Assembly: GCF_041886205.1 (NCBI RefSeq)
Contig: NZ_CP169029.1
Source of the DNA: Escherichia coli
GTDB taxonomy: Bacteria; Pseudomonadota; Gammaproteobacteria; Enterobacterales; Enterobacteriaceae
Length of the DNA stretch: 64,000 bases
Strand: one strand, 5' to 3'
In this document: positions 1,203-44,786 of the stretch, piece by piece
Numbering within the stretch: position 1 is the stretch's first letter
Layout: each line of letters starts with the position of its first letter
Translations under genes and position numbers: made by a program
Notes under the pieces: model-generated
What the model saw: the letters and a program-made list of their open reading frames with translations, nothing else
The model's database searches: none
Told to the model about the DNA's origin: nothing

Positions 1203-1383
1203 CTGTCTCTCCTTTTTGTCTGGTATGACATGAAGAAATCCTTAGCACAAGTTTCTGCTGGCGGTATTAGTTCATAATGTTGAGATGTGGGTTACGCTTT
1301 CGTCACGTTTTCATTCAAAAATCGCGTACCAGGTAACAATTCGGGAACATTCCCCCAAAGTTAAATTAATAAGGCACTACACT

Positions 1384-1713
1384 ATGGTTAGCAGGAAACG
1401 TAATAGCGTTATTTACCGGTTTGCCAGTTTATTATTGGTGTTGATGTTAAGTGCCTGTAGCGCACTGCAAGGTACGCCACAGCCAGCACCGCCAGTAACG
1501 GACCATCCGCAAGAGATTCGCCGCGACCAGACGCAAGGGTTACAGCGAATAGGTAGCGTAAGCACGATGGTTCGGGGTTCTCCGGATGACGCATTAGCAG
1601 AAATCAGAGCGAAAGCTGTCGCTGCAAAAGCTGATTATTACGTTGTCGTCATGGTGGACGAAACCATCGTGACAGGACAGTGGTATTCACAAGCCATTTT
1701 GTACCGTAAATAA
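1384..1713 (+). CDS. bsmA: DUF1471 lipoprotein BsmA (biofilm stress and motility)
   Basis: Track ORF 1285..1713 trimmed to internal ATG giving the 109 aa lipoprotein (signal peptide ending LSAC). Confidence 0.85.
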   Translation: MVSRKRNSVIYRFASLLLVLMLSACSALQGTPQPAPPVTDHPQEIRRDQTQGLQRIGSVSTMVRGSPDDALAEIRAKAVAAKADYYVVVMVDETIVTGQWYSQAILYRK

Positions 1714-1861
1714 ATCAGACAACTTACATAGTCAGCTTTACATTGCTTTGCGTCCCTATGCGTTTACCTGTGCACAATAAATTACCGGCTGGAAGCCTGG
1801 GCGTTTATTACCGCGATGGAATGCCCTGCAACATGTGGGGAAACGAAAAATGGAGCTGACG

Positions 1862-2137
1862 ATGAAACAATTACTTGCCTCACCCTCGCTGCAATTAGTG
1901 ACTTATCCTGCGAGCGCCACGGCACAGTCTGCAGAATTCGCCAGTGCTGACTGCGTGACGGGCCTGAATGAAATAGGTCAGATCTCAGTTAGCAATATTT
2001 CAGGGGATCCGCAGGACGTGGAACGTATCGTGGCGTTAAAGGCCGATGAACAAGGTGCGTCATGGTACCGCATTATTACCATGTACGAAGACCAGCAGCC
2101 TGATAACTGGCGCGTGCAGGCGATACTGTATGCGTGA
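1862..2137 (+). CDS. yjfN: DUF1471 family periplasmic protein YjfN
   Basis: Track ORF 1835..2137 trimmed to MKQLLASPSL start (91 aa); paralogous to bsmA C-terminal domain. Confidence 0.8.
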   Translation: MKQLLASPSLQLVTYPASATAQSAEFASADCVTGLNEIGQISVSNISGDPQDVERIVALKADEQGASWYRIITMYEDQQPDNWRVQAILYA

Positions 2138-39876: not shown

Positions 39877-40410
39877 ATGCGCCTGCTCCCTCTCGTTGCC
39901 GCAGCGACAGCTGCATTTCTGGTCGTTGCCTGCAGTTCTCCTACGCCGCCGCGTGGCGTGACAGTAGTGAATAATTTCGACGCTAAACGCTATCTCGGTA
40001 CCTGGTATGAGATTGCCCGTTTTGATCACCGTTTTGAACGTGGACTGGAAAAAGTCACCGCAACATACAGTCTGCGTGATGACGGCGGCCTGAATGTCAT
40101 CAATAAAGGCTATAACCCTGACAGAGAAATGTGGCAGCAGAGTGAAGGGAAAGCGTACTTTACCGGCGCACCAACACGCGCTGCGCTGAAAGTGTCATTC
40201 TTTGGTCCTTTCTATGGCGGTTATAACGTCATTGCACTTGATCGGGAATACCGCCATGCGCTGGTTTGCGGCCCGGACCGCGACTACCTGTGGATACTCT
40301 CCCGCATGCCAACCATTTCTGACGAAGTGAAACAGGAGATGCTGGCAGTCGCGACCCGGGAAGGGTTTGATGTCAGTAAGTTTATTTGGGTACAGCAGCC
40401 CGGTAGTTAG
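39877..40410 (+). CDS. blc: outer-membrane lipocalin Blc
   Basis: 177 aa ORF with lipoprotein signal peptide (LVVAC). Confidence 0.9.
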
Positions 40411-40724
40411 TGAGTGCTGAGTTTCAGACCAATAATCCCCAATACGATTAACGCCAGACTCGCCAGGCGCATCGGGTTAGCGGACTCACCGAGCAGCACA
40501 ATGCCGGTGATAGCCGCGCCGACTGCGCCAATACCCGTCCACACGGCATAAGCCGTCCCTACTGGTAACGATTTCATCGCCCAGGCAAGTAGCGCCATAC
40601 TGACAATCATCGCCGTCACGGTAATAACACTCGGCGTCAAACGACTAAAGCCGTGGGTATATTTCAGGCCAACGGCCCATACCACTTCCAGCAGACCAGC
40701 AATAACTAAGATAATCCAGGACAT
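40407..40724 (-). CDS. gdx: SMR-family guanidinium exporter Gdx (SugE)
   Basis: Track ORF 155 aa trimmed to [14 protein letters not shown] start (105 aa, four TM helices, conserved Glu in TM1). Confidence 0.9.
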
Positions 40725-40742
40725 ATCAGGCTCCGGAGAATT

Positions 40743-40787
40743 GGGGCCGTCCCCGGTGAAAAGACGCGTTTGCAGGTCGTCCTGCAA
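40743..40787 (-). ncRNA. guanidine-II (mini-ykkC) riboswitch in the gdx leader
   Basis: Two hairpins on the minus strand with ACGR tetraloops: uugcagg-ACGA-ccugcaa and gggg-ACGG-cccc, separated by a 15-nt linker, followed by GGAG Shine-Dalgarno and the gdx ATG. Confidence 0.75.
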
Positions 40788-40905
40788 AGCTGATGGTTGA
40801 ACGGATATTTTGCCAGGTGGCAGGGGAATTTCAACTATTACCTTAGTGACTATCGCAGAAAAAACAAACGGCACGACATAGCTGTCGTACCGTTATTGCT
40901 TATTG

Positions 40906-41052
40906 CTATTGCTGCGCTTTCGTTGCTGCGCCAGAAATCGCGTTACCGCCATCAGAAATGTCTTCACCAACGCCACGCGTGGTGTTGCAGGCAGTTAATA
41001 CTGTTGAAAGCACCAGAACAGAAAAGATCGCTGCAATTGTCTTCTTCACCAT
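40906..41052 (-). CDS. ecnB: entericidin B lipoprotein
   Basis: Hand-translated 48 aa [51 protein letters not shown] (not in the ORF track because under its length cutoff). Confidence 0.85.
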
Positions 41053-41162
41053 AACGTCTTCCTTTTAGGTAATGTTATTTATGTTTGCCTATAGCAAATT
41101 AATAATAGACAACATCGCCAAAAATGACGGAAATCTGATGATTTTTCGGAAGAGAAGAAAAA

Positions 41163-41288
41163 TTAGCTGGCAGCGCGAGAGATGGAGTTGCCGAGATGTT
41201 TGATGTCTTCGCCGAAACCGCGAGCGGTGTTACAGCCCGTGAGCAGCGTGCTGGCAAGCAAAACAAGAACGATAAGGCGTTTCATCAT
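41163..41288 (-). CDS. ecnA: entericidin A lipoprotein
   Basis: Hand-translated 41 aa [44 protein letters not shown]. Confidence 0.85.
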
Positions 41289-41339
41289 CTCTGACCTGAA
41301 TAAGTGATGGTGCAGCCTGCAGGCCGCACCACAACCGCA

Positions 41340-41906
41340 TTACTTCACGCGAGAGACGTATTCACCAGAGCGGGTATCCACTTTGATGACTTCGCCGATT
41401 TGTACGAACAGCGGAACTTTAACCACTGCGCCAGTAGACAGGGTAGCCGGTTTGCCGCCAGTACCTGCGGTATCACCTTTCAGGCCCGGATCGGTATCAA
41501 CGATTTCCAGTTCAACGAAGTTCGGCGGAGTAACGGAGATCGGCTGACCATTCCACAGAGTTACGATACACTCTGCCTGATCCAGCAGCCATTTAGCGTT
41601 GTCGCCAATTGCTTTTGCGTCAGCAGACAGCTGCTCGAAAGTTTCGTTGTTCATGAAGTGCCAGAACTCACCGTCGTTGTACAGGTAAGTCAGGTTCATA
41701 TCGACAACATCAGCGCCTTCAGCGGAATCAGTAGATTTGAAGGTTTTTTCTACGCGAGTACCGGTCAGCAGACGACGCAGTTTAACGCGAGCAAATGCCT
41801 GGCCTTTACCCGGTTTTACGAATTCACTCGCTTCAACCGCGTAAGGTTCGCCGTCTAACATGATTTTAAGACCAGCACGAAAATCGTTGCTATAGTACGT
41901 TGCCAT
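41340..41906 (-). CDS. efp: elongation factor P
   Basis: 188 aa ORF with the modified-lysine loop KPGKGQAF. Confidence 0.95.
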
Positions 41907-41947
41907 AAGGCCCTCTGAAATTTGTTAATTGGTAGCTAAGCCACAAA

Positions 41948-42976
41948 ATGGCGCATATTGTAACCCTAAATACCCCATCCAGAGAAGATTGGTTAACGCA
42001 ACTTGCCGATGTTGTGACCGATCCTGATGAACTTCTGCGTCTTTTGAATATAGACGCGGACGAAAAACTGTTGGCCGGACGCAACGCCAAAAAGCTGTTT
42101 GCCCTGCGTGTGCCCCGCTCATTTATCGATCGCATGGAGAAAGGCAATCCGGACGATCCGCTTTTGCGTCAGGTACTTACCTCGCAAGATGAGTTTGCCA
42201 TCGCGCCCGGATTCTCCACCGACCCGCTGGAAGAACAGCACAGCGTAGTGCCTGGTTTGTTGCATAAATACCACAACCGGGCGCTTTTGCTGGTCAAAGG
42301 CGGCTGCGCGGTAAATTGCCGTTATTGCTTCCGTCGCCACTTCCCTTATGCCGAAAATCAGGGCAACAAGCGTAACTGGCAAACTGCACTTGAGTATGTT
42401 GCTGCGCATCCGGAACTGGACGAGATGATTTTCTCCGGCGGCGATCCGCTGATGGCGAAAGATCACGAGCTGGACTGGTTGCTCACACAACTGGAAGCCA
42501 TCCCGCATATCAAACGTCTGCGGATTCACAGTCGTCTGCCGATTGTGATCCCGGCACGCATCACAGATGCGCTGGTTGAACGCTTTTCACATTCTACGCT
42601 GCAAATCTTGCTGGTGAATCACATCAACCATGCCAATGAGATAGATGAAACATTCCGTCAGGCGATGGCTAAGTTGCGCCGGGCGGGCGTTACTTTGCTG
42701 AACCAGAGCGTTCTGTTACGTGGTGTGAACGATAACGCACAAACGCTGGCAAACCTGAGTAATGCGTTGTTCGATGCCGGCGTGATGCCGTATTACCTGC
42801 ATGTGCTCGATAAAGTACAGGGCGCGGCGCATTTTATGGTGAGTGATGACGAAGCACGGCAGATTATGCGTGAGTTGCTGACACTGGTGTCCGGATATCT
42901 GGTGCCGAAACTGGCGCGAGAAATTGGCGGCGAACCCAGCAAAACGCCGCTGGATCTCCAGCTACGCCAGCAGTAA
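41948..42976 (+). CDS. epmB: EF-P lysine 2,3-aminomutase EpmB
   Basis: 342 aa ORF with radical-SAM CxxxCxxC motif (CAVNCRYCFRR). Confidence 0.9.
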   Translation: MAHIVTLNTPSREDWLTQLADVVTDPDELLRLLNIDADEKLLAGRNAKKLFALRVPRSFIDRMEKGNPDDPLLRQVLTSQDEFAIAPGFSTDPLEEQHSVVPGLLHKYHNRALLLVKGGCAVNCRYCFRRHFPYAENQGNKRNWQTALEYVAAHPELDEMIFSGGDPLMAKDHELDWLLTQLEAIPHIKRLRIHSRLPIVIPARITDALVERFSHSTLQILLVNHINHANEIDETFRQAMAKLRRAGVTLLNQSVLLRGVNDNAQTLANLSNALFDAGVMPYYLHVLDKVQGAAHFMVSDDEARQIMRELLTLVSGYLVPKLAREIGGEPSKTPLDLQLRQQ

Positions 42977-44432: not shown

Positions 44433-44786
44433 TCAGTTCGGGCACTTATAAACCTGACCGATAATCTGGCTATCCGTCGGGACAAAACTGGACAACATTC
44501 CCTGCGACGGGCTGCTGATGCCATAAATCACGTTACCGCCCATTGCAGCCGCCTGGTTGCGCAGATCGTTTGCTGCGCCGCGCATAGAACCGCCCTCTTC
44601 TCCGTGTTGCCCGGAAAGCCAGTTGCTTTGCTTACCTGTCGCAGTACCAATCAGCTGGCACTCTGCGCCTGGCTGCTCGTCCACAATGCGTACACTCTGA
44701 CCGGCAGCACTCAATTCGTTGCTGGAGCTACAACCCGCCATCAGTAGCGCGGCACCGACAATCCCTGATAAGTATTTTACGTGCAT
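44433..44786 (-). CDS. yjeI: DUF4156 lipoprotein YjeI
   Basis: Track ORF trimmed to MHVKYLSGIVGAALLMAGC start (117 aa, lipobox LMAGC). Confidence 0.8.
   Translation of the reverse strand: MHVKYLSGIVGAALLMAGCSSSNELSAAGQSVRIVDEQPGAECQLIGTATGKQSNWLSGQHGEEGGSMRGAANDLRNQAAAMGGNVIYGISSPSQGMLSSFVPTDSQIIGQVYKCPN

Follow-up and report, generated by a model that had tools for sequence, protein, structure and literature searches.

Two short open reading frames (ORFs) stand in tandem on the minus strand of the 64-kb stretch of Escherichia coli DNA analysed here (the window). The first, ecnA (41163..41288), begins with ATG and encodes 41 amino acids before its stop codon; the second, ecnB (40906..41052), begins with ATG, encodes 48 amino acids and ends with TAG. 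Re-translation places both frames exactly where the original prediction, made from the sequence alone, had put them, and neither contains the frameshift or premature stop that it had named as a refutation. The pair was also said to have escaped the mechanical ORF list by falling below its length cut-off, which is plausible, as both ORFs are shorter than the 60-aa default. The surrounding gene order is yjeI-yjeJ-epmB-efp-ecnA-ecnB-sugE/gdx-blc-ampC-frdDCBA, and the same tandem (ecnA then ecnB, on one strand, between efp and sugE/gdx) is found here, in strain LHM10-1, in K-12, in Salmonella and in Klebsiella.

The tandem lipoprotein genes ecnA and ecnB

The two genes are tandem paralogues, each coding for a lipoprotein precursor; EcnA and EcnB are 55% identical (E = 4e-14). 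Their N-termini are basic (KR in EcnA, KK in EcnB) and are followed by a hydrophobic stretch and then by the lipobox. In EcnA the signal peptide (codons 1-18) precedes the lipobox LTG-C19, whose cysteine codon, TGT, lies at 41234..41232; in EcnB it occupies codons 1-21 and precedes LTA-C22, with the cysteine codon TGC at 40989..40987 (minus strand in all cases). The lipobox cysteines announced for ecnB (LTAC) and ecnA (LTGC) are both present after the signal peptide, and the mature peptides are 23 aa (EcnA) and 27 aa (EcnB) long.

Both proteins exceed the gathering score (23.3) of the Pfam family PF08085 (Entericidin EcnA/B), with 30.2 bits for EcnB and 26.4 bits for EcnA, and in each the domain begins 2 residues past the lipobox Cys. 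They have the features by which this family is recognised: a precursor of small size (about 40-55 aa) with a lipoprotein signal peptide, and a lipobox Cys that immediately precedes the domain. NCBIfam holds two curated equivalog models, NF007487 ("lipoprotein toxin entericidin B") and NF007319 ("lipoprotein antitoxin entericidin A"). The 48-aa ORF scores 121.9 bits on NF007487 (cut-off 94) over positions 1-48 of 48, and the 41-aa ORF scores 114.9 bits on NF007319 (cut-off 86) over positions 1-41 of 41. The cross-scores on the opposite model are about 45 bits each; as the EcnA ORF obtains just 44.5 bits on NF007487, ecnA and ecnB are correctly told apart.

Alignment to annotated ecnA and ecnB, which had been proposed as a check, gives 100% DNA identity over both coding sequences with strain LHM10-1 (RefSeq ecnA WP_000977757.1, ecnB WP_000239596.1), and the encoded proteins are identical to those of K-12 b4410 (ecnA) and b4411 (ecnB). 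A stretch of 801 nt around the genes has matches in 5425 of 5426 complete E. coli genomes, and the RefSeq features on this match are efp, ecnA, ecnB and sugE. A PDB sequence search with EcnB returned no relative with a solved structure. None of the family-model, alignment, synteny and substitution tests gave evidence against the identity of the genes. That the two ORFs correspond to ecnA and ecnB, the entericidin genes of the E. coli chromosome, is virtually certain: the names first given to the 41-aa and 48-aa frames are supported by the family models, the DNA identity, the K-12 proteins and the synteny. The best overall explanation is, very probably, an intact ecnA/ecnB pair in its normal place between efp and sugE/gdx.

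Salmonella and Klebsiella have the same synteny (efp-ecnA-like-ecnB-sugE), and their EcnB proteins are 95.8% and 91.7% identical to the one encoded here, respectively. EcnA is longer in these genera (44 aa in Salmonella, 43 aa in Klebsiella), with longer signal peptides. The three genera have in common the mature core C-N-T-x-R-G-x-G-E-D-I, which is invariant in 6 of 6 EcnA and EcnB proteins, and the sequence block around the candidate ecnB -10 element is conserved in them. Salmonella carries an additional gene for a LuxR-C-terminal regulator, placed between ecnB and sugE but on the other strand; this gene is absent here, from K-12 and from Klebsiella. We take this LuxR-type gene to be ecnR-like, as in Citrobacter freundii. 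In Salmonella sp. pPJT1-452kb the regulator gene is found at 1378..1965; this record is a 452-kb IncHI2A 'plasmid' with a chromosomal-type segment.

Expression signals and neighbouring features

The stop codon of efp lies at 41342..41340 (minus strand) and is followed by a stem-loop, GGTGCGGCC-TGCA-GGCTGCACC (41309..41330, minus strand), with a 9-bp stem and a predicted RNA folding energy of -21.6 kcal/mol. This stem-loop has no T-run and was not called by the terminator scan. It is probably a hairpin that ends or stabilises the efp mRNA, or a leaky terminator. Since it lacks the form of a canonical terminator, ecnA may be partly co-transcribed with efp by read-through. The ecnA start is a tandem ATG ATG, directly preceded by CAGGTCAGAG (41289..41298, minus strand), a putative weak ribosome-binding region.

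The spacer between ecnA and ecnB is 110 nt long. A terminator-like site after ecnA (41129..41116) was rejected: the whole spacer folds at just about -9 kcal/mol, and the site has no clean T-run. Further down, the motif C-TATTAT (41102..41108, minus strand), located by eye, is a candidate RpoS-type -10 element for an ecnB promoter; a C at -13 is typical of sigma-38 promoters. The block that contains it, GTTGTCTATTATTAA, is shared unchanged with Salmonella and almost unchanged with Klebsiella, in contrast to the divergent remainder of the spacer. A few nucleotides downstream, TGCTATAGG (41088..41096, minus strand) is an extended -10-like motif in what would be the initially transcribed region; it matches the consensus TGcTATA(A/C)T at 7 of 9 positions, and is a candidate sigma-38-dependent promoter-proximal pause signal. 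A scan for the sigma-70 consensus found no promoter in the ecnA-ecnB spacer, which is uninformative because the published ecnB promoter depends on sigma-38. According to published work, the spacer holds a separate promoter for ecnB, ecnB P, which is served by sigma-38 RNA polymerase but poorly by sigma-70; expression of ecnB occurs in stationary phase and at high osmolarity, is RpoS-dependent and is repressed by OmpR (PMC5389655). The same work describes an extended -10-like pause signal, of consensus TGcTATA(A/C)T, a short way past the start, and a pause site that overlaps an OmpR site (PMC5389655). From their sequences, C-TATTAT and TGCTATAGG probably correspond to these published promoter and pause elements.

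A Shine-Dalgarno sequence, AAGGAAG (41058..41064, minus strand), stands 5 nt before the ecnB ATG, and AAGGA(A/T)GAC is kept at this site in Salmonella and Klebsiella. The sigma-E-dependent sRNA MicA is predicted by RNAduplex (nt 1-28 of the K-12 copy of MicA) to pair with ecnB codons 1-11 (41021..41051, minus strand). The predicted duplex has an energy of -24.2 kcal/mol, compared to -12.8 +/- 2.9 for shuffled targets, 1 in 500 of which was as good. This agrees with the published repression of ecnB mRNA by MicA (PMC3551931). After the gene, the terminator scan found a strong intrinsic terminator (40859..40894, minus strand) made of a 12-bp stem, a 4-nt loop and then TTGTTTTTT; it folds at -20.2 kcal/mol, and its only difference from LHM10-1 is one loop base.

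A scan of 40300..42000 against Rfam found no RNA family within the ecn genes and only the guanidine-II riboswitch of sugE (mini-ykkC, RF01068), at 40742..40788 on the minus strand (49.3 bits for a gathering score of 32, E = 2.5e-8). It lies 18 nt upstream of the sugE/gdx ATG (40724) and is in keeping with gdx being annotated as a guanidinium exporter in K-12. The mechanical list gives this gene as a 155-aa ORF with a GTG start (40407..40874, minus strand), which is an over-extension of the 105-aa sugE/gdx, whose annotated start is the ATG at 40724. As the 50 extra codons span the riboswitch and reach the ecnB terminator, they are not to be read as coding.

Three other ORFs of the window have convincing lipoprotein signal peptides, all of them above the length cut-off: a 109-aa ORF that begins MVSRKRNSVIYRFASLLLVLMLSAC... 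(1384..1713, plus strand) and is presumably BsmA/YjfO, Blc (177 aa; 39877..40410, plus strand), and YjeI (117 aa, DUF4156; 44433..44786, minus strand).

Coding status and allelic variation

ORFs as short as these could be chance open frames in the efp-sugE intergenic region, from which no protein is made, and lipobox-like patterns are not rare: 35 of the 2565 start-to-stop ORFs of at least 30 aa in the 64-kb window match a loose PROSITE-like lipoprotein pattern. The lipobox alone is therefore weak evidence. The ecnAB pair is nonetheless far beyond chance, because the ORFs are adjacent paralogues, match the curated models above their cut-offs and differ between genomes mainly by synonymous substitutions. 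Six other E. coli alleles, picked to cover the range of identity, differ in ecnA by 13 distinct synonymous codon changes and a single non-synonymous one, T14A, in the signal peptide; in ecnB the same six alleles show 1 synonymous and no non-synonymous change. Synonymous changes dominate between genera as well: the ecnB codons differ from those of Salmonella by 23 synonymous and 2 non-synonymous changes, and from those of Klebsiella by 25 and 4. The pattern of codon changes indicates that both genes are under purifying selection. The Shine-Dalgarno site and the terminator are in place, and peptides of EcnB have repeatedly been seen by mass spectrometry, and few small proteins of E. coli are detected as often in proteomics; the same study reports no EcnA protein (PMC12529367). 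The reading of the two ORFs as chance frames is already refuted, and the probability left to it is negligible.

Compared to K-12, the sequence is 6 bases longer right at the ecnB stop codon, through a tandem duplication of AGCAAT (40908..40913, minus strand), and ecnB could on this account be seen as a variant or damaged allele. The gene reads CAA TAG CAA TAA where K-12 has CAA TAA, so that TAG takes the codon position of the K-12 TAA and the 48-aa protein is unchanged; moreover, NCBI annotates the same allele as WP_000239596.1, and the terminator is intact. Damage to ecnB is thus refuted at the protein level, and very improbable overall. The duplication is polymorphic in E. coli: among the matches listed, those of 99.6-99.8% identity have a span of 486 nt, and K-12, BL21 and every match of at most 98.4% identity have a span of 480 nt. 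The ecnAB locus of K-12, which is the type locus itself, has the same proteins, gene order, spacer and terminator as the one described here. The DNA differences from K-12 are the 6-bp duplication at the stop codon, two substitutions in the ecnA-ecnB spacer and one base of the terminator loop, and these differences in the compared region are neutral.

The two genes are not equally variable in the sampled E. coli alleles: 1 site in 147 nt varies in ecnB, and 14 in 126 nt in ecnA. Much of the ecnA variation belongs to one haplotype common to three of the sampled alleles. For this reason, the contrast may reflect a recombination tract rather than an additional constraint on ecnB, such as the MicA pairing site.

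Physiological role of the entericidin pair

From general lipoprotein biology, the two precursors would be modified by Lgt, which attaches diacylglycerol to the Cys, cleaved by signal peptidase II (LspA) and N-acylated by Lnt. The products would be N-acyl-S-diacylglyceryl-Cys lipopeptides of 23 (EcnA) and 27 (EcnB) residues, both destined for the outer membrane. Sorting to the outer membrane is expected because position +2 is an Asn, not the Asp of the Lol-avoidance signal; the outer membrane vesicles in which EcnB homologues have been reported fit this expectation (PMC7296081). In UniProt the lipidation of EcnB at C22 is a curation assertion; intact EcnB went undetected in a top-down analysis, for which the authors blame hydrophobic lipid modifications (PMC12529367). 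The mature peptides have opposite net charges, +1 for EcnA and -1 for EcnB. None of 2000 shuffled sequences matches the helical hydrophobic moment of mature EcnA, and 0.2% match that of mature EcnB. These moments, well above the shuffled controls, are consistent with mature EcnA and EcnB being amphipathic helices, which probably lie on or in the membrane.

The original prediction had described EcnB as a stationary-phase bacteriolytic lipoprotein and EcnA as its antidote. This description agrees with the names that RefSeq gives to the K-12 products ("entericidin A lipoprotein, antidote to entericidin B" for b4410, "bacteriolytic entericidin B lipoprotein" for b4411) and Bishop et al. 1998, but it meets with inconsistencies in the later literature; the mention of stationary phase agrees with Bishop et al. 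1998 as cited by later papers. According to the account of that work given in PMC7296081, overproduction of EcnB leads to lysis, which ecnA prevents in cis. The toxin-antidote label rests mainly on this one overexpression study of 1998, and doubt over a toxin-antitoxin role is already in print (PMC7296081).

As reported, the ecnAB pair resembles the type I systems Hok/Sok and TisB/IstR and the type V system GhoT/GhoS, in which a small membrane-active toxin is countered by an antidote from a neighbouring gene. Unlike in these systems, the two partners here are paralogous lipoproteins, both of them exported, and a protein serves as antidote in place of an antisense RNA or an RNase; deletion of the antidote gene is also not lethal (PMC7296081), in contrast with the small membrane-toxin modules. 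Atu8019 from Agrobacterium tumefaciens is likewise a small lipoprotein with an Entericidin domain, exposed at the cell surface and in vesicles (PMC7296081). It differs from ecnAB in that it has no ecnA partner and is proposed to act in vesicle docking, and it is neither lytic when overproduced nor pore-forming in liposome assays (PMC7296081).

That EcnB and EcnA act physiologically as a lysis toxin and its antidote has, in our estimation, about an even chance of being correct. The alternative, to which we give a somewhat lower probability, is that EcnB is an abundant lipopeptide of the outer membrane and vesicles and EcnA a related or modulating paralogue; the two would not form a self-killing pair, and lysis would be an artefact of overexpression. 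The roles proposed for EcnB along with it, and held just as tentatively, are stress adaptation, vesicle or cell-surface interactions, and antagonism of other bacteria. In minimal medium, growing and viable cultures contain up to about 70,000 EcnB copies per cell, and a clpP mutant contains more than 100 times as much EcnB (PMC12529367). An ecnA deletion mutant is viable and is part of the Keio collection (PMC7296081), which argues against a strict antidote, as cells should not survive without a true antitoxin. The copy number and the viable ecnA mutant are in tension with the 'toxin' and 'antitoxin' of the RefSeq names. A role in the envelope is also favoured by the non-lytic Atu8019 with its proposed part in vesicle docking, by the entericidin B homologues that many species from several genera have in their outer membrane vesicles, and by the secreted Enterobacter EcnB homologue that acts against Flavobacterium (PMC7296081 for all three). 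Control by RpoS, OmpR and MicA is typical of envelope-remodelling genes, and the Asn at +2, which predicts outer-membrane sorting, as well as the natural loss of both genes in UPEC129, point in the same direction. Against it stand the lysis on overproduction and the rescue by ecnA in cis in Bishop et al. 1998, as related in PMC7296081, and the tight conservation of the tandem across Enterobacteriaceae, which fits a functionally coupled pair.

The E. coli strain UPEC129 has a clean natural deletion of 514 bp, which removes ecnA, ecnB, the spacer and the terminator. The stem-loop at the end of efp is still present in this allele, as is the sugE riboswitch. The deletion junction falls within ACCATCA, a 7-bp direct repeat (41311..41305 and 40797..40791 in the window), which suggests that the loss was mediated by microhomology. 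The loss means that ecnAB is dispensable, which fits either model of its function. Less than 80% of the ecnAB query is covered in about 11 of the 5425 genomes.

The ecnAB locus is reported (Bishop 1998) to stabilise plasmids by post-segregational killing. A tblastn search of plasmids returned mostly chromosome-sized or misassigned records, and no sign of a mobile plasmid-addiction ecnAB module. The record 'plasmid unnamed16' (5317 bp, linear) of Klebsiella oxytoca FDAARGOS_1334 is made up of E. coli ecnA-ecnB-sugE-blc-ampC(BlaEC)-frdDCB, with EcnA and EcnB under protein accessions that E. coli also has. Rather than a plasmid, this record seems to be a contig of E. coli within a Klebsiella assembly; it may also be an excised ampC amplicon.

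The ecnA and ecnB genes described here are intact, long known and annotated in thousands of genomes, and there is nothing new in them; beyond bookkeeping, the finding has little consequence. Their sequence gives no new information on whether the label of toxin plus antidote fits the physiological role. If EcnB were indeed an envelope lipopeptide, this would correct an annotation and would not be a discovery made from this sequence. The remark that small proteins of the window need hand annotation is borne out by the pair itself, for which the calls made by hand proved accurate: ORF lists with a length threshold skip real and abundant small proteins such as EcnB.
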